Virus record (IMG/VR): IMGVR_UViG_3300020235_000546
Coordinates: 1-31,467 of that record
Length of the DNA: 31,467 nt
DNA from: a virus
Taxonomy: Duplodnaviria; Caudoviricetes
Strand: one strand, 5' to 3'
The notes beneath the pieces are model-generated. The model worked only from the letters and a program-made list of their open reading frames with translations. It did not search any database and was not told the origin of the DNA. Shown in pieces: positions 7,212 through 30,854 of this stretch; position 1 is the stretch's first letter; each line of letters opens with the position of its first letter. Both the position numbers and the translations under genes were made by a program.

Positions 7212-9931
7212 GCAGTAGCGGTATTAGAAAATTCAAGACTTTTGAAGATAGAACAATTGAACTTATTGTTAATCAAGAATCCAATTTTATCGGAGCTCTA
7301 AAAGTCACTGGAACTGAGTCCAGCTTTGGGGGAGTGGTAGGACTTGGAACTGCTACCAGTGGAGGTCCTGGGGCTCCAGTTGGTAATTTCCTAGAGGTCG
7401 CAGGGGGAAGTATGGCTGGCCCAATTGCATATTCCCCACAGCTCGTTACCGTGGACGTTGATAACAATGTCAACATAGGTTTTCAGCAAGGAGCTTTTTC
7501 CACTTACATCCGTGTAACTGCGACAGGAGCTACTGACGATTTAGAAAATATTATTGGAGCTCACTTTTCCGGCCAAGATATTATTCTGCAAGGAACTGAT
7601 ACGAAAACTATCACGCTAAAGACAACTGGTAACATCATCCCTCCAGGTGAAGCTGATTTTGATCTTGTTGATGATAAAATAATTAGAGGTGTCTTTGACG
7701 AGATTCAAAACAAGTGGGTTTTCTATACCAGTAGTGGAGGAGGTGGTGGATCAATCCCTGACGGGACATTAGAGAATCAGCATTTAGAATGGGACGATAC
7801 GGCTGGAGAATGGAAAGCTGTCAATGATATTGATATGTTTGTTGGCGTCAATGCACGAGCTATCCATAACCTAGATGGACTTGATTTTATCAGTGACACA
7901 GCTGTTGCTTTCGGTAATTTTTCTATTGATGAAACAAGTGGATTAGAGGCATTAAATCTCAATCTACCTGACACAACCGATTTTACAATTTCTGACGACG
8001 CAGTAATAAAATGGCGATTCATTCCAAGCACTTCTGAAATTACCTTTGACGGAGGTGGATCTGGGATCACAAATTTCGGTCATTTAGATTTCGTTAACAA
8101 CTTGGCGACACCCTCAGCCACGTTCTCAATTTATTCAAACGGTACTGATCTTATCGCAAGAACATCTAGTGGCAGTTCAAGAAACCTAGATCGTATAGTC
8201 GAAACCCCTATGACGAGAAACTTGGACGCTGGTGATAATGATCTAACCAATCTACAAAGTCTATTTTTCAATGAAACGAACAATGCTATTCTTGCTGATC
8301 CCGTAGGTATGTTATTCCGAACTGCTACAACGGACAGGTTTGATTGGGAAGTTGCTGGAACTGGTATCGTGATGACGTTAAACACAACTACTCTTGGTTT
8401 AGGAGTTGACCTTGCTATGCCTACTGGAGGTAACATTCTTGGTGGAGGTTCAGATAATGGAATGACAAACATCGGTCATTTAGATTTCATTGATAACTTA
8501 TCCTCTCCAGGCGCAACGTTTTCTATTTATTCTGACGGTACTGATCTATTTGCAAATACAGGTAGTAAGGTAGTCAACCTTGATGATATTCCACAGCTAG
8601 CTCTTAATGAAACCGTAACTGGTCTATGGACATTCGACGATATCATTAGAGCTGGTGGAGCTGGTTTTGGAATGGACACTATTGGTCATTTAGATTTCGT
8701 TGATAACTTAGCCACTCCAGGAGCTACGTTTTCTATTTATTCTGACGGTACTGATCTAGTTGCAAATACTGGAAGTCATGTAACCAATTTTGATAATTTA
8801 CCTGAGCTTACTATCGCTAACACATTTACCGCAATCAACACATTCAATGCCAATATTGTTGGAGGTGGGGCTGGTGAGGGATTAAGCAATATCGGTCAAC
8901 TTATTTTTGTCGATAACTTAGCCACTCCAGGTGGTATCGCTATCTATTCAGATGGCACAGATATTTTCACAACTGCTACTTGGAATTTCAATCTTAAAAA
9001 TTTAGAGAGTGTAACTGATATTATTTTACGTGATGGATTCAATACTTCAAAATTATTCTTTGACGGAGGTGTAGATACTTACATGACAGGTTCAGGTATA
9101 ACTGGAAGAATTAATTTTTTCATGGACGGAAATAACAAAGCGTCGTTTGATCCTACTGGATTGGTTCTTGCAATAGATACATACCTTACAGTGGACGAAA
9201 GAACGTCTAATCCAGCAGCATTGACAGCTAAAGGAATATTCTTTGTTAAAGAAGTAAGTGGTAACGCTGAGCCTTGGTTTGTTGGACAAGGTGTAACTGC
9301 TCAGTCATTACTTGGTGGAGGTGCTGGTGGTGCAACTATTGAGCTAGACAACTTAGGAACTACATCTATCAATGCACAACTTAATTTGCAAAACGGAGTT
9401 AACATAATACCTGAGGATTTCGGTAGTGTTTTGGGAGATTCAACACATACTTTTGGAACTTCGTACTTTACTCGAATTAACTTTGATTTGACTACACGGT
9501 TTATTGCTGGAACTGGAGCTCTTGATATGATCGTCGAAGTCCCAAGTGGAGGAAATATGTTTTTTAGAGAAGCTGGAACAAACTTTTGGGAACTAGATGG
9601 CGACTCAAACCAATGTGTATTTTATCGTGATATTGCTTTAACATCGGGTGAGGCCATTAGATCACACCAAGGGGCTGAAATTGGATTTTTTGTTACTAAC
9701 ACAACTGTCGCAGTTGGCTCAGCTGGTAGTATGCAAATACCCACAACTACAACCACGATCGGTAGTAATTCACAGTTGAATACAGCTTTTGGATCTGCAA
9801 TAGGTTGTATGGGGATATATGATACTGACACCTCAGTTCCCATACTTGCAATAAAGATTCAATCGAATAAATGGGCTTTGATTACATTCCCTGATAATGC
9901 TATCACGGTAGTAGGCGACCATGTAACCTAG
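7208..9931 (+). CDS. tail fibre/receptor-binding adhesin with internal repeats
   Basis: 907 aa, G/T/N/D-rich, poly-Gly hinges, four GHLDFVDNLATPGATFSIYSDGTDL-type repeats; last gene of the tail module. Confidence 0.7.
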   Translation: MSSSGIRKFKTFEDRTIELIVNQESNFIGALKVTGTESSFGGVVGLGTATSGGPGAPVGNFLEVAGGSMAGPIAYSPQLVTVDVDNNVNIGFQQGAFSTYIRVTATGATDDLENIIGAHFSGQDIILQGTDTKTITLKTTGNIIPPGEADFDLVDDKIIRGVFDEIQNKWVFYTSSGGGGGSIPDGTLENQHLEWDDTAGEWKAVNDIDMFVGVNARAIHNLDGLDFISDTAVAFGNFSIDETSGLEALNLNLPDTTDFTISDDAVIKWRFIPSTSEITFDGGGSGITNFGHLDFVNNLATPSATFSIYSNGTDLIARTSSGSSRNLDRIVETPMTRNLDAGDNDLTNLQSLFFNETNNAILADPVGMLFRTATTDRFDWEVAGTGIVMTLNTTTLGLGVDLAMPTGGNILGGGSDNGMTNIGHLDFIDNLSSPGATFSIYSDGTDLFANTGSKVVNLDDIPQLALNETVTGLWTFDDIIRAGGAGFGMDTIGHLDFVDNLATPGATFSIYSDGTDLVANTGSHVTNFDNLPELTIANTFTAINTFNANIVGGGAGEGLSNIGQLIFVDNLATPGGIAIYSDGTDIFTTATWNFNLKNLESVTDIILRDGFNTSKLFFDGGVDTYMTGSGITGRINFFMDGNNKASFDPTGLVLAIDTYLTVDERTSNPAALTAKGIFFVKEVSGNAEPWFVGQGVTAQSLLGGGAGGATIELDNLGTTSINAQLNLQNGVNIIPEDFGSVLGDSTHTFGTSYFTRINFDLTTRFIAGTGALDMIVEVPSGGNMFFREAGTNFWELDGDSNQCVFYRDIALTSGEAIRSHQGAEIGFFVTNTTVAVGSAGSMQIPTTTTTIGSNSQLNTAFGSAIGCMGIYDTDTSVPILAIKIQSNKWALITFPDNAITVVGDHVT
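8078..8965 (+). repeat. four intragenic ~75-90 bp repeats in the fibre gene
   Basis: Copies start at 8078, 8474, 8684 and 8894 (spacings 396, 210, 210 bp), e.g. ggtcatttagatttc...gataactta...ttctatttattctgacggtactgatct. Confidence 0.9.
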
Positions 9932-19154: not shown

Positions 19155-19328
19155 ATGCAGAATCAAAAAACGTCGCTTCGCGACTTACGAGTAACTATTA
19201 TGCTCAGCCCACTTTTAAATCAGGCAATCAGAAAGTTACAAGCAGATACCATAAAAAAGACACAACGCTCATGGTCATTTTCAGCACAACTCAGTGAAGT
19301 GCTAAGAGAGGGGTTGAGGAATATATGA
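19155..19328 (+). CDS. ribbon-helix-helix-like regulator 1 (57 aa)
   Basis: RVTIML...AIRKLQADTIKKTQRSWSFSAQLSEVLREGL; TATA upstream; absent from the ORF track. Confidence 0.7.
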   Translation: MQNQKTSLRDLRVTIMLSPLLNQAIRKLQADTIKKTQRSWSFSAQLSEVLREGLRNI

Positions 19329-19480
19329 CAGTAGTTACCAAGTGCATCACGATCACAGAGGAGCAAGATAAGAAAATCAGAGTCATCCAACTTAGGCGAA
19401 TGACTGCCGAACAAAAGACGGTTAGTTATTCCAGCGTACTACACCAGGCAATTAATGAGGGGCTCCAGAGAATAGCATGA
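19325..19480 (+). CDS. ribbon-helix-helix-like regulator 2 (51 aa), paralog of 1
   Basis: KCITITEEQDKKIRVIQLRRMTAEQKTVSYSSVLHQAINEGL; ATGA overlaps. Confidence 0.7.
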   Translation: MTVVTKCITITEEQDKKIRVIQLRRMTAEQKTVSYSSVLHQAINEGLQRIA

Positions 19481-20855: not shown

Positions 20856-21245
20856 ATGAGTAGCTATATGCCCGAATCCAAGTCGGACACCCATGTTACT
20901 CCAGATAGGGTTTTTGAACTAATCAAGGATAAATGGAATTACGAGTACGATGAGTTTTATGATCCATGTCCAGTTAACGGAACTGAGGGCTTGACCACAC
21001 CTTGGGGAAAACTTAACTTTGTCAACCCACCTTACACTTTGCTAAAACAGTTCGTTTGGAACGCGATGGGAGAAACAAATAACGGAAATGTTACAATTAT
21101 GCTATTGCCGGCCAAAACTGACCAAGAGTGGTTCCATGACATACTTGATAAGGGATATGAGATAAAATGGATTCGTAAGAGATTGAAGTTTAAAAACAAT
21201 AAATGGAGTGCAACTCAACCCCACTTCCTGGTAAGGATAAAATGA
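20856..21245 (+). CDS. phage-type DNA N6-adenine methyltransferase (Dam-like, minimal)
   Basis: TP...DPC...W...FVNPPY...MLLPAKTDQEWFH...RLKF motifs. Confidence 0.88.
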   Translation: MSSYMPESKSDTHVTPDRVFELIKDKWNYEYDEFYDPCPVNGTEGLTTPWGKLNFVNPPYTLLKQFVWNAMGETNNGNVTIMLLPAKTDQEWFHDILDKGYEIKWIRKRLKFKNNKWSATQPHFLVRIK

Positions 21246-22516
21246 AATGGTTAAGTCTATTTTCAGGGGTGGGGGGATTCGACTTGGCGTTACAGAATCT
21301 CGGAGAGGAAGTAATTGGAGCTTGCGAGATAGATGACTTCGCTAGATCAGTTTATGCCAAGCGATTCCCAGGGACAAAAATCTACAAAGACGCAACAAAA
21401 ATCGACGCAGAGCAACTCCCCGACTTTGACGGTATCGTTGCAGGATTCCCTTGTCAAACTTTCTCAATTGCGGGAAACAGGCTCGGATTTGAGGAGTCAA
21501 GAGGCACTCTATTTTTTGAAATTGTTAGGATTGCACGACAAAAACGACCTAGATACTTGCTACTTGAAAACGTTAAGGGCCTACTATCTCACGATAACGG
21601 GAGAACGTTCGCAATCATTCTCTCAACGCTGGATGAGCTCGGGTACGATGCGGAGTGGCAAGTGTGCAATAGCAAATACTTCGTTCCGCAAAACAGGGAG
21701 CGGATCTTCATTATTGCATATCTTAGAGGAGAACCCCGACCAAAAGTATTTCCTATCCGAGAAGTCGATCAGCTATCTGCAACGGAGAAACGTGGAAAAC
21801 GAAAAAAAGGGGAGGGGATTCGGAGCGAAGATATTGCAAGTACCGTCGGATCAAGATATGGCTCTCTCCAAAACTCAGGGGAAACCTACCTCAAACAAGT
21901 CGGAAACATAGACCGATCAGGTCATAACTCCCTTTGGGGTAGAGTGTATGATCCAAATCGTACTGATGTAATTGGCAAGATAAATGACTCCCAATCGGGT
22001 ATTGTATATTCTGTCGGTGGCCTGGCTCCAAACCTCAACGCCAATGGAGGGGGTATGGGGGCAAAAACTGGATTGTTTGCCGTGGCTTGGTCAAAATCCC
22101 ATAGGACTGGAAATGGCAAGTATGACAAGAACCGTCATAATTATGGCAAGGTTGAGGAGCGAATCAAAATTGGAGAGTTCAACACCCTAAACACTGGAGA
22201 TGGATGTCGAACTCAATCAAGTGCAAATTATGTCGTTGACAAGCCAATTTTCACTCAATACACAGATCATGCTGGCAGTAGGGTTTATGATCCAAAAGGC
22301 CCATCATCATCCCTAATGGCTGACAATGGTACGGGTTCAAGGCTGAAAATCGAGGATGGTACAAGAATTAGAAAATTAACCCCGTTAGAGTGCGAAAGAC
22401 TGCAAGGATTCCCTGATGGGTGGACCGAGGGACTTTCAGATACCCAAAGATACAAGTGCATGGGAAATGCAGTTACCGTCCCACTCGTTCAGTTCATACT
22501 TTCAAAACTCCTTTAA
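21242..22516 (+). CDS. DNA cytosine-C5 methyltransferase
   Basis: FSGVGG (I), GFPCQ (IV), LENVKG (VI), QNRER (VIII), RKLTPLECERLQGFPD (IX), MGNAV (X). Confidence 0.95.
   Translation: MKWLSLFSGVGGFDLALQNLGEEVIGACEIDDFARSVYAKRFPGTKIYKDATKIDAEQLPDFDGIVAGFPCQTFSIAGNRLGFEESRGTLFFEIVRIARQKRPRYLLLENVKGLLSHDNGRTFAIILSTLDELGYDAEWQVCNSKYFVPQNRERIFIIAYLRGEPRPKVFPIREVDQLSATEKRGKRKKGEGIRSEDIASTVGSRYGSLQNSGETYLKQVGNIDRSGHNSLWGRVYDPNRTDVIGKINDSQSGIVYSVGGLAPNLNANGGGMGAKTGLFAVAWSKSHRTGNGKYDKNRHNYGKVEERIKIGEFNTLNTGDGCRTQSSANYVVDKPIFTQYTDHAGSRVYDPKGPSSSLMADNGTGSRLKIEDGTRIRKLTPLECERLQGFPDGWTEGLSDTQRYKCMGNAVTVPLVQFILSKLL
21333..21911 (+). CDS. overprinted +1-frame ORF, EcoHK31I-beta-like MTase partner subunit
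   Basis: ATG-initiated 192-codon alternative frame with WMSSGTM..G...SSLLHILEENPDQKYFLSEK...YLQRR. Confidence 0.6.
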   Translation: MTSLDQFMPSDSQGQKSTKTQQKSTQSNSPTLTVSLQDSLVKLSQLRETGSDLRSQEALYFLKLLGLHDKNDLDTCYLKTLRAYYLTITGERSQSFSQRWMSSGTMRSGKCAIANTSFRKTGSGSSLLHILEENPDQKYFLSEKSISYLQRRNVENEKKGRGFGAKILQVPSDQDMALSKTQGKPTSNKSET

Positions 22517-23022: not shown

Positions 23023-24822
23023 TTGGTTCACTCCGATTCGTTTCGGTTAGGAAATATCGAAAAACAACTTTCTGAATTACAAGCAAAAGCGTTACCTGAT
23101 AATGTTCCCGACAATATGCTAGAATTTATCCGAGAGTTCCGGCCAATGATTGGTAGAAAGCCGCTAAACTTCAAAAAAGATCCATTTTGGATTGAACCGT
23201 TACTTGATCCACATCCACACCAAATGTTTGTCAATGGACGGCAAACTTACAAGACAACCAATTGCAGTTCGCTTATTGCGAAAATAGCTTTGCAGAAACC
23301 AGGGTGCGAAGTTACATACGTCGTGGATGACGAAAACCACAGGTCAGCATTTTCAGAACAGAGATTGCGTCACGAAACTTTTATTTCAAATCCAAAGTTA
23401 GAGCGATACCTACCCAACGGAAAAGCAAACGTCGGGAGGATCAAGCTACTTAACGGTTCGGTAATATATTTAGTTACCGACGAAAATAAGTACCACGCTG
23501 TTGAGGGTAAATCTAATGAGGCTCTCATTCTGGACGAAGCCCAAGCTCAAGATATTGGATTTTTACCGATCGCTATGTATTCGCTCTCTAAAACTCACGG
23601 ACGAGTCTATATGTTTGGAATTGGAGGGGAGGCTGGAAGTGAGTATCACCGAATGTGGAAAAGAACTGACCAGCGTGAATGGGTTTATGATGACCTCAAG
23701 TGGAGGGAAAGATTGGAGTTTGACGCTTTCGGAACAATTACTAATTCCGACAATGACTTGGCGAAAATACTTGCTGGTAAATGGGTTGCACAAAATCCTA
23801 CGAATGTAGATTACAGAGGCTACCACTTTCCCCAGGAAATGTTCCCACACGTCCCATTGACAATTCACGATGCCGTTACGAAATACCATGTACAACCTGA
23901 GCTTTCAATAGAGTACCAAAAAAAACACTATCCAATGAGTATGTATCTTTCACACTGTCGAGCAGAATTTTACAAAGCAGAAAGACGACCTATCACTCCA
24001 GAAATGGTAGAGGCTTGTTATGTAAATTATTTGAAACTTTTACTGCCACATGAAGTCATTGAACTGAAAGCCATGTATGGTAACGAGATACGGGTGCTTG
24101 GCGGAGTTGACTTTGGATCTGGACCTTCTGCGTCAAAAACTGTCGCATCAATTATTATTCATTGGCGTAAGAGCAATCGGTATCAGCTTGTATGGGTTGA
24201 TCCAAGGCCAGCCGAACATCCTATGGATCAAGCACGATATATTGCAGAGCTCTTTCGTAACTATGAAATTGACTTTGGCGTTGGCGATTGGGGATATGGA
24301 CAGGATCAGATACCTCTCATCCAAGGAGGGGGACGAGATGCCAACGATAACAAATTCGAGGGCCTGGGCCGACATAAGTTTAGAGGATGCCAAACAATTG
24401 GAAATGAAGTTAAACCAATATCAGAATATGGTCAAAACACTGACGAACATGGAATCGAACAAGATAAGATCCAAATTGACAAAACAACTGTAATTCAAAA
24501 CTTTATTGATTTTATTGGAATGAAAGTATCTCATCCGTTATATCCCAACGAGGAAAAATTCAAACAAATGATGTTTATGATCCCACACTTTTACGATTGG
24601 CAAACTGACTTTTTGATGGACGAGATGACAAACATTACAAGAAAAGATTTGGACGAAGTACAAGAAGTAATTACCGAAGATCCCCGTCAAAGGGCTATGA
24701 AGCTCTTTAACCACCCTCAAGATGCTGTCATGTCGATAATTTACTGTCTAGTAGGAGCCCAAAATTATAACCCCTCGGCCTATGAAATTACACCAATTAG
24801 GCGAAAGGCACGAAGAAAGTGA
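23023..24822 (+). CDS. terL: terminase large subunit
   Basis: Walker A GRQTYKT, Walker B LILDEAQ, RNase H-fold GGVDFG...GVGDWGYG...DAVMS. Confidence 0.9.
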   Translation: MVHSDSFRLGNIEKQLSELQAKALPDNVPDNMLEFIREFRPMIGRKPLNFKKDPFWIEPLLDPHPHQMFVNGRQTYKTTNCSSLIAKIALQKPGCEVTYVVDDENHRSAFSEQRLRHETFISNPKLERYLPNGKANVGRIKLLNGSVIYLVTDENKYHAVEGKSNEALILDEAQAQDIGFLPIAMYSLSKTHGRVYMFGIGGEAGSEYHRMWKRTDQREWVYDDLKWRERLEFDAFGTITNSDNDLAKILAGKWVAQNPTNVDYRGYHFPQEMFPHVPLTIHDAVTKYHVQPELSIEYQKKHYPMSMYLSHCRAEFYKAERRPITPEMVEACYVNYLKLLLPHEVIELKAMYGNEIRVLGGVDFGSGPSASKTVASIIIHWRKSNRYQLVWVDPRPAEHPMDQARYIAELFRNYEIDFGVGDWGYGQDQIPLIQGGGRDANDNKFEGLGRHKFRGCQTIGNEVKPISEYGQNTDEHGIEQDKIQIDKTTVIQNFIDFIGMKVSHPLYPNEEKFKQMMFMIPHFYDWQTDFLMDEMTNITRKDLDEVQEVITEDPRQRAMKLFNHPQDAVMSIIYCLVGAQNYNPSAYEITPIRRKARRK

Positions 24823-29173: not shown

Positions 29174-29653
29174 ATGACAAATCTTTATCCAGGTCTAGCA
29201 CGTGGTCCAATCGATCACAAGTCTAGTTCCGTGATAAATATTATCGCAAACGAAACGAATATGGAAATGGGAGGCTGTGTTAAATTAGCAGCCCCACCCA
29301 GCACAGAACTATTACCAAGAGCCGACAAAGTTGACACGGCTGGTGAGGATTCCTATGGAATTACCATCGGTGGCGACAACGACGGAATTTATGGTGATGG
29401 TGGTGCAAGTCCAGCTGATAACACAACTAAAGCAACCCTACTCGTAGGTGATGCTGTTGTATTGTGTACCCAAGGTAGATGCCTTGCTAGAATTTCTGAA
29501 AACGTTATACTTGGTGACGAACTAGGTGCTGACGGTACAGGAGATATGGCAAAAGCTGATGCTGCTGGTAACATGATACTTGCAACTGCTTTACAAGCTG
29601 GATCTGCTGGTGACATAATCGCAGTTGACGTACAAAGGGAGGGACAGTTCTAA
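29174..29653 (+). CDS. capsid decoration/cement protein (DUF2190-like)
   Basis: GD.V.L...G......V..GD.L.AD..G....A......A.AL.A...GDII.V pattern; directly before MCP. Confidence 0.7.
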   Translation: MTNLYPGLARGPIDHKSSSVINIIANETNMEMGGCVKLAAPPSTELLPRADKVDTAGEDSYGITIGGDNDGIYGDGGASPADNTTKATLLVGDAVVLCTQGRCLARISENVILGDELGADGTGDMAKADAAGNMILATALQAGSAGDIIAVDVQREGQF

Positions 29654-29654
29654 A

Positions 29655-30854
29655 ATGGCAGGCTCTAAACCAAAACACAATAGATCCAGTATCTTAGCAC
29701 TCCCTGAAATGGCACACATTAGAGAAGCTCTAATGTTAGGAGCAGAAGCTTCACAGGCCAACGGTAGAGGATTTGATATTTTCAAACCAATCCGTGAAAC
29801 TCCATTGGGAGTATTCTTTGATCGTCATAGTGCTAATGGTTTCGAGGACGGTAAGCTAAACCCTAACCTAGACAAAGTTTGGTTCTCACAATATGGAATA
29901 AGAATCGGAGATATGGCAACCACCAATCCAACAATCGGTGGGCAAGCACTCCGAGAAACTGTGTCCATACCAAATACACTATCTGCTTTGAAAATTGCAG
30001 ATGAAATTTTGGAAGGAGCTGAGCCTTGGTCAGATTGGAAACAGTATTTTAGATTGATTGACATGGACACTCCAAAAGTGAATGTCCCAATCACAAAATA
30101 TACTGACACAGTCGGTGGTAGTGTGGACGACCAAAAAGGTATAGAAATATACAAAGAGGCCGGAGGAACACCCCCAGCAATAGGCGGAAAAGTTACAACC
30201 GTAGAACTCGATACAAGTGGTACAAACAACTCTTACAGAGGTACACTATCTGTCAACAGAAACGATGTGAAAGACAATAATTTCCTTGCAGTTGAGCAAT
30301 CGCTCAAAAACGCTGGAAACGAGTTTTATTACATGGTTGGTGAAAAACTAATCAGAACGTTACTAGCTGACTCAAATGTACCAACTGATACAAAAGCAAA
30401 CCTAGCTATTAGCACTCCAATACAAGCAGAGTTTGAAGCATTGATCAACGTTATCAGAGGTATCTTTCCAGGTACTCAAAGAAATCGTGCAGATACAATG
30501 TTCATTCATCCAACTGATGCTATGGAATCTGTTAGAAACGCTGGTACAAATGGCGAGTGGCCATTCCTCAGTAGATTCATCGTTGGACCTACTGACAACA
30601 CTGATGTTATCAACAACAGTGGATTAGCCGCGGCACTAGGCCTCAGAAATGTTTGGGAAACTCCCCAGATAGAACAAGGCAAGGTACTCATCGTGAAAAG
30701 AGATATTGCTCAAGTAGTCGGTCTAAGAGAAGATTTGACCATTGAAAACTTCGACCTAAGCGTAGGTGGATTGTATGAATCTGATCTCTTGATTAGATTC
30801 CACGCAAAACCAGCTCATGCTGACGTTGGTGCGTTCATAATCAATACGTTCTAA
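29655..30854 (+). CDS. major capsid protein (HK97 fold)
   Basis: 399 aa; IADEILEGAE...EAGGTPP...ADTMFIHP...LGLRNVWETPQIEQGKVLIV...; strong terminator after. Confidence 0.85.
   Translation: MAGSKPKHNRSSILALPEMAHIREALMLGAEASQANGRGFDIFKPIRETPLGVFFDRHSANGFEDGKLNPNLDKVWFSQYGIRIGDMATTNPTIGGQALRETVSIPNTLSALKIADEILEGAEPWSDWKQYFRLIDMDTPKVNVPITKYTDTVGGSVDDQKGIEIYKEAGGTPPAIGGKVTTVELDTSGTNNSYRGTLSVNRNDVKDNNFLAVEQSLKNAGNEFYYMVGEKLIRTLLADSNVPTDTKANLAISTPIQAEFEALINVIRGIFPGTQRNRADTMFIHPTDAMESVRNAGTNGEWPFLSRFIVGPTDNTDVINNSGLAAALGLRNVWETPQIEQGKVLIVKRDIAQVVGLREDLTIENFDLSVGGLYESDLLIRFHAKPAHADVGAFIINTF

Follow-up and report, generated by a model that had tools for sequence, protein, structure and literature searches.

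Does the C5 cytosine methyltransferase gene of this virus encode one protein or two? The gene lies in a linear virus record of 31.5 kb that is 77% complete (IMG/VR record IMGVR_UViG_3300020235_000546, positions 1 to 31,467, analysed at full length and referred to here as the window), and a long open reading frame (ORF) runs through its catalytic motifs in the +1 frame. A preliminary description of this DNA had proposed that the two frames encode the parts of a split enzyme, brought together either as a heterodimer or by a programmed frameshift. We find two open frames that are each under selection, with the segment expected after motif VIII in the +1 frame and not in the main frame. We consider it likely, with a probability of roughly 0.77, that the gene specifies a two-chain C5 methyltransferase in which the main product (alpha) carries motifs I-X together with the variable region, and a nested product (beta) with its own start supplies the missing segment.

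A second open frame is nested in the C5 methyltransferase gene

The main ORF (21242..22516, + strand) encodes a 424-residue C5 cytosine methyltransferase (PF00145, E 4e-81) in which a single frame runs from motifs I-VIII through the variable/TRD region to motifs IX and X, with the catalytic Pro-Cys, ENV, and QxRxR of the PF00145 enzymes present. The catalytic Pro-Cys of motif IV is at 21449..21454 (+) in the sequence and is invariant in 37 of 37 alignment rows, motif VIII (QNRER) is placed at 21689..21703 (+) by its sequence and by alignment with M.HhaI, and motifs IX (RKLTPLECERLQGFPD) and X (YKCMGNAV) occupy 22370..22474 (+), where their presence in the main frame is a point of difference from M.EcoHK31I. 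The ATG at 21242 is favoured over the ATG at 21203 as the start of alpha because the alignments with homologues begin there. Alpha aligns to residues 13-172 and 270-315 of M.HhaI, which is also its top fold match in Foldseek. When alpha is modelled alone with AlphaFold2, 150 residues reach a pLDDT of at least 90, giving an M.HhaI-like core and a variable region without resolved structure.

The nested +1 ORF (21333..21911, + strand) extends from an ATG at 21333 to a TAG at 21911, contains SSLLHILEENPDQKYFLSEK, and encodes 192 residues that match PHROG 16143 (E 3.5e-19) and likely form a small subunit. It begins at alpha codon 31, in motif II (E-I-D-D), and ends near codon 223, ~70 codons beyond motif VIII; a second candidate start, the ATG at 21354, would give 185 residues. 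An ATG-started ORF of 192 codons across motifs II-VIII is thus present at 21333-21911, as had been claimed, and it is not a chance opening. When the main protein was recoded synonymously 20,000 times with the codon usage of the window, the beta span held a mean of 8.3 stops and was stop-free in none (0/20,000; analytic P = 10^-4.5), and a +1 open run of at least 192 codons anywhere in the methyltransferase gene arose in 0.03% of recodings. The longest +1 runs in 18 other ORFs of the window span 23-141 codons. The best of these, a 138-residue ORF nested in the terminase gene (window 24077-24493), is closed in 17/17 homologues; we therefore regard it as a chance opening and use it as a negative control. 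The contigs of four runs from one other study cover the methyltransferase gene piecewise, with zero insertions or deletions listed. Fusion of beta to the upstream Dam-family ORF, which is in the same frame, was considered separately and is ruled out by stops at 21243, 21252, 21312, and 21330.

The +1 frame is open in relatives and constrained as a protein

A search with the main protein returned 89 viral and 458 GTDB loci, and one with beta returned 197 viral loci; from each of these three sets the 80 best-ranked were retained. Two records of phage MM1 and the window brought the total to 243 records, of which 214 were left after removal of four that were cut or partial and of exact duplicates. 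The loci were sorted by the presence of a main-frame 'VFP' signature after motif VIII, and +1 stops were counted from motif IV to motif VIII+25. No +1 stop occurs in 45/45 viral VFP loci (a set that includes the window itself, as L001), where 327 are expected, and the frame is likewise stop-free in 3/3 GTDB VFP loci (18.3 expected). Stop absence in homologues had been suggested earlier as a check on the second gene, and among these best-ranked VFP loci found through the main protein the frame is open in 48/48, with 345 stops expected. It is also stop-free in 68/69 loci found through beta and in MM1. Ordinary methyltransferases carry close to the expected number: loci that lack the signature have 167 +1 stops in 23 viral sequences (189.5 expected) and 597 in 73 GTDB sequences (655.5 expected). 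Only three of these 96 loci are stop-free, and two of them (L002 and L007) carry the +1 segment described below and were reassigned to the class with two open frames, here called dual. All these counts include many close kin and are not independent, and they do not measure prevalence because the search words favour the dual class.

A tblastn search with beta matched 222 phage records (146 from Streptococcus) and 103 plasmid records, with no enterobacterial record among 40 of the 103 plasmid records. An archaeal instance is found on plasmid pMETHO01 of Methanomethylovorans hollandica (L294, NC_019972.1, 2342-2995), where a 217-residue +1 ORF with the same segment lies inside an annotated dcm gene; RefSeq lists the main ORF only.

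Selection on the second frame was assessed from pairwise divergence at fourfold sites at which a change cannot create a +1 stop, in 30 dual representatives (<85% identity) and 32 single-chain representatives. In the dual set, divergence is 0.72 at alpha codons 1-30 and 0.66 at codons 374-420, both outside the overlap. It is 0.48, 0.52, 0.63, and 0.51 in successive blocks of codons 31-150, and 0.15 at codons 151-175, the region of the segment, where the single-chain set gives 0.71. Divergence in the single-chain set is 0.70-0.74 everywhere. Because divergence is reduced across the overlap and lowest at the segment, the +1 product is constrained as a protein throughout the overlap. Selection in the +1 frame of homologues was another check proposed in advance, and its outcome is a fourfold-site constraint confined to the overlap.

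These results bear on the reading that the +1 ORF opened by chance, or is a shadow cast by the conserved main frame and not translated. The beta profile does match the stop-ridden wrong frame of ordinary methyltransferases (E 1.3e-8 and 3.5e-12), so the likeness of beta among relatives is partly forced by alpha. Neither the single beta sequence nor a 79-row profile matches anything in Pfam or among PDB sequences, and the leads in the ESM Atlas all score below 0.9 (best 0.83, a lead only), as a shadow reading would allow. Against this reading, +1 stops are near expectation in ordinary methyltransferases and almost absent from the dual class, synonymous constraint is limited to the overlap, and the chance ORF nested in the terminase gene is closed in every homologue. 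The shadow or chance explanation is largely refuted by these observations, and we consider it very improbable.

The segment that follows motif VIII is encoded in the +1 frame

Many C5 methyltransferases carry, in-frame after motif VIII, a segment of the form 'L.DILE..D.KY.LS'. In the window the corresponding stretch, L..ILEE..D.KYFLS, is found at beta residues 127-146 (21711..21770, + strand), and it is here that constraint on the overlap is strongest. Across 79 rows L127 is invariant, and I130, L131, E132, K138, Y139, F140, L141, and S142 are each present in at least 90%. We built a hidden Markov model of the segment from the in-frame stretch after motif VIII in 89 of 94 single-chain loci; the remaining five were too short, had main-frame stops, or were open in the +1 frame. 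Applied to dual loci, this model scores above 8 bits in the +1 frame of 120/120, and in the main and +2 frames of 0/120 each. For the window itself, the score is 18.7 bits in the +1 frame and -1.5 bits in the main frame, which bears out the earlier observation that the main frame lacks the segment. Beta residues 126-171 also weakly match positions 311-356 of an E. coli Dcm model (E 0.022), and alpha's own match to it stops at position 305. By these profile matches, the segment of beta is homologous to that of single-chain C5 methyltransferases.

A predicted complex of alpha and beta

The structure of the complex was predicted from alpha and beta residues 22-165. The pass mark for such predictions is reached by 116/157 solved complexes and by 2/215 mismatched pairs, counts that hold roughly here since we used alignments of our own making. 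The pair scores 0.81, compared with 0.00 for the best of three controls; at least 49% of contacts are common to the runs, and the pLDDT of the partner is at least 50. Beta folded alone is modelled poorly (pTM 0.31). The contacts with the lowest predicted error involve beta residues 95-109, around the RW..SG motif (21615..21659, + strand), which are predicted to add an edge strand by pairing with alpha residues 136-143, with the best contacts between beta 102-108 and alpha 136-141. This extra strand would anchor beta on alpha. At alpha codons 121-150, which cover the region of beta 95-109, fourfold divergence is 0.51 in the dual set and 0.73 in the single-chain set. The post-motif-VIII segment itself (beta 127-146) is predicted to pack onto alpha residues 170-176 and motif IX (375-387), with beta 129-141 in contact with motif IX.

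The score of 0.81 should be read with two features of the system in mind. It may come partly from likeness to solved single-chain methyltransferases, and the alignments of alpha and beta co-vary by construction because the same bases code both chains; the best predicted contacts fall where the codon series of alpha and beta coincide. With these caveats, the model supports binding of beta to alpha; a prediction of the complex was among the checks suggested earlier. Together with the segment model and the selection on the second frame, it also supports the earlier proposal of a split enzyme, in its heterodimer form, with the overlapping frame providing what the main frame lacks.

Relation to known split methyltransferases

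A nested two-ORF layout for C5 methyltransferases is already known: it is annotated in Streptococcus pneumoniae phage MM1 and proven for M.EcoHK31I. For MM1 (GenBank DQ113772.1 and AJ302074.2), record DQ113772.1 annotates ORF13 as 'C5 methyltransferase alpha subunit' and ORF14 as 'beta subunit', and our comparison is with these annotations. As in the window, the MM1 beta ORF is nested in alpha and covers its catalytic motifs in the +1 frame (7631-8056 within 7480-8637), with motifs IX and X on alpha and the post-motif-VIII segment on beta. Over 131 residues, window beta and ORF14 share 41% identity, a likeness partly forced by alpha; window alpha and ORF13 share 38% over 449 columns. In contrast, MM1 belongs to another virus group, probably infects another host, and has a different variable region, and its beta has 141 residues compared with 192.

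M.EcoHK31I from E. coli HK31 (recognition sequence YGGCCR) also encodes beta wholly inside alpha in another frame, and both chains are needed for activity, according to two reports (PMC2836561, PMC3404938). The same reports place motif IX on beta and describe it as absent from alpha, whereas motif IX of the window is on alpha. The analogy with M.EcoHK31I drawn in the preliminary description therefore stands for the nesting of beta in alpha and fails for the position of motif IX: we do not class the window with the EcoHK31I type, and because its motifs IX and X sit in the main frame, MM1 ORF13/ORF14 is the closer precedent. In M.AquI (CYCGRG), which also consists of two polypeptides, the small chain carries motifs IX-X along with the distal part of the variable region (PMC3404938). 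The window enzyme would likewise be split; unlike M.AquI, it has the distal variable region and IX-X on alpha, and the second chain is encoded inside the region of motifs II-VIII. Single-chain enzymes such as M.HhaI and Dcm share with it the catalytic core, the fold, and a homologous segment, but in them the segment is in-frame and the +1 frame is closed.

What is reported of M.EcoHK31I suggests which parts of beta matter. In PMC2836561, activity declines once 37 residues of beta are deleted and drops steeply as the deletion grows from 65 to 70 residues. Supplementary primers of that article encode the same order of motifs as window beta (RW..SG, NT, L..[VI]LE), and the deletion points that these primers place at RW..SG and L..VLE match the two predicted contact regions of the window; both matches were made by eye and are unscored. 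By analogy, the window enzyme likely works as M.EcoHK31I does, with alpha alone expected to be weak or inactive, and the comparison suggests where the essential part of beta lies in natural split C5 methyltransferases.

A different role for beta would be accessory or regulatory, with the protein made but serving as a stabiliser, specificity modulator, or inhibitor of an alpha chain that is active by itself. The ten motifs of alpha in one frame are compatible with this, as is the confident modelling of its M.HhaI-fold core without beta. Yet the in-frame segment is missing from alpha and present in the +1 frame in 120/120 members examined, a stop interrupts the frame in only 1/69 beta-found loci, and M.EcoHK31I activity is abolished without the starts of beta and drops sharply on deletion of residues 65-70 (PMC2836561). 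We therefore consider an accessory role unlikely, and favour beta as the carrier of a required segment.

Our literature search found no family-wide description of nested-frame C5 methyltransferases, although one could still be in print, and the available parts of PMC3711429, PMC6755750, and PMC6563490 do not describe the layout. The overlapping gene in the window, on the same strand and ~190 codons long, is well supported and of a kind that annotation usually misses. Cloning, recoding, or codon-optimising such methyltransferases is likely to destroy the second subunit, so that the enzyme would be wrongly called inactive.

How beta could be made

Beta would be translated from its own start within the alpha gene. 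In 117/117 open loci, the stretch from the upstream +1 stop to motif IV contains a start codon (ATG, GTG, or TTG), and in 97/117 it contains an ATG. A +1-frame ATG or GTG with an SD-like word is found in 17/30 dual representatives compared with 6/32 single-chain representatives. The position of the start is not conserved: an ATG occurs at the window's first site in 3/30 representatives and at its second in 5/30. In the window, neither ATG 21333 nor ATG 21354 has a well-spaced SD. A five-codon +1 mini-ORF (TTG...TAG, 21315..21332, + strand) is preceded by GGAGAGG and abuts ATG 21333, an arrangement that could offer a re-initiation route. The mini-ORF is not a conserved signal, because its TAG is found in 13/30 representatives and the ATG next to it in only 3/30. 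A scan for sigma-70 promoters returned five sites where 3.8 are expected, with none on the + strand upstream of beta. Among the sequencing runs listed for the sequence none is of RNA, a result that is uninformative for expression. In M.EcoHK31I, beta was restarted at internal Met codons (PMC2836561).

Instead of an own start, recoding could join the two frames: ribosomal frameshifting or transcriptional slippage from main to +1, and possibly back, would place the segment in cis on one chain. The segment is indeed located exactly where it is in a single-chain enzyme, a database protein (P0006) reads main to +1 to main with the first switch at a T run, and a single shift in loci L007 and L169 would yield a whole enzyme. 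In the window layout, however, a chain made by one shift would terminate at the beta stop and lack the TRD and motifs IX and X, so two shifts would be required, and a shift near motif VIII does not account for the ~120 open and constrained +1 codons upstream of it. P0006 lacks motifs VI and VIII, is one member on one contig, and may reflect an indel error, and the contigs of the four runs mentioned above list no indels. The T run at F91-F92, considered as a conserved slippery site, was rejected, as it is interrupted by C in 12/30 representatives. Because two shifts are needed and constraint extends upstream of motif VIII, the programmed frameshift suggested earlier is a worse fit than a subunit with its own start, and we regard recoding as distinctly improbable.

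Modules on either chain among relatives

Translation of the beta frame as a subunit is also indicated by relatives in which parts of the enzyme sit on the other chain. In L007 and L169 (2/120 dual loci), alpha breaks off early, after motif VIII, and the variable region and motifs IX-X are found in the beta frame, an arrangement that reflects either a frame switch or an assembly indel. Among longer beta homologues, 18/41 end in motifs IX and X and lack motifs IV or VIII; these are gene-caller products seen without their context. Both groups resemble M.AquI in having IX-X on the second chain. That the IX-X block can sit on either chain argues that the beta frame is a translated one. Across the dual loci, the motif IX pattern is in alpha in 107/120 and in beta in 2/120.

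Five other loci (L197, L198, L014, L186, and L223) have long insertions between motifs I and IV that are open in both frames, and the +1 frame of these insertions reads as TRD-like repeats before the beta core.

A broader scheme can be sketched tentatively, and as a whole it is rather less probable than not. In it, the nested subunit would universally supply the post-motif-VIII segment through the edge strand, and not motif IX. As both frames would already be translated, single indels in the variable region would move TRD-IX-X between chains, so that MM1-, EcoHK31I-, and AquI-like enzymes would be states of one two-frame chassis in which specificity modules are reshuffled. The family would be large and for the most part unannotated, with members in Bacillota phages, in marine viruses, and on an archaeal plasmid. 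The present virus would probably infect ammonia-oxidising archaea, with beta initiated internally without a good SD.

Genomic setting and host

The window contains terminase and primase-polymerase/helicase genes. A Dam-family N6-adenine methyltransferase gene (20856..21245, + strand; PF05869, E 2.6e-13) lies directly 5' of the C5 methyltransferase gene and overlaps the start of alpha in the sequence ATGA. M.EcoHK31I is part of a restriction-modification system; no restriction gene was recognised beside the C5 gene in the Pfam and PHROG annotation of the window. The assembled enzyme may be an orphan methyltransferase beside a Dam-type one, methylating viral DNA against host restriction. The further suggestion of the preliminary description, that the two frames give control over viral DNA methylation, is conjectural. 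A pair of Dam-type and C5 methyltransferase genes is also seen in the relative L248.

The host is a separate question. Two neighbouring small ORFs of 57 and 51 residues lie at 19155-19480 of the window, and the 57-residue ORF scores 0.93 against one Atlas cluster (82% RHH_1) and 0.94 against an archaeal cluster. One of the three top Atlas clusters for this protein is archaeal, with the phylum known for one member. The protein cluster related to a capsid-like ORF (29625-30854) has one member labelled as a Nitrosopumilus MAG and another labelled as a Methylococcaceae MAG. An archaeal host, which would make this a Nitrososphaerota virus and agree with the 'archaeal-type virus' of the preliminary description, is only weakly supported, by two weak leads. 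A tblastn search with the terminase matched Bacillota phages at only 22-25%, and the ORF at the portal position had no tblastn match. A small protein of the window had no match in 61 genomes of one phylum, a result that is uninformative for the host. Among 51 loci found with the capsid-like ORF, a methyltransferase lies within the fetched flanks in three, and all three match beta in the next frame.

The 4-base palindromes most depleted in the window (1-31467) are GCGC, seen 3 times where 16.4 are expected, and CCGG, seen 8 times where 32.2 are expected. Alpha residues 242-281 weakly resemble the recognition region of M.HhaI, which recognises GCGC (domain E 3.6). The depletion and this resemblance may reflect either restriction sites of the host or the target of the enzyme.
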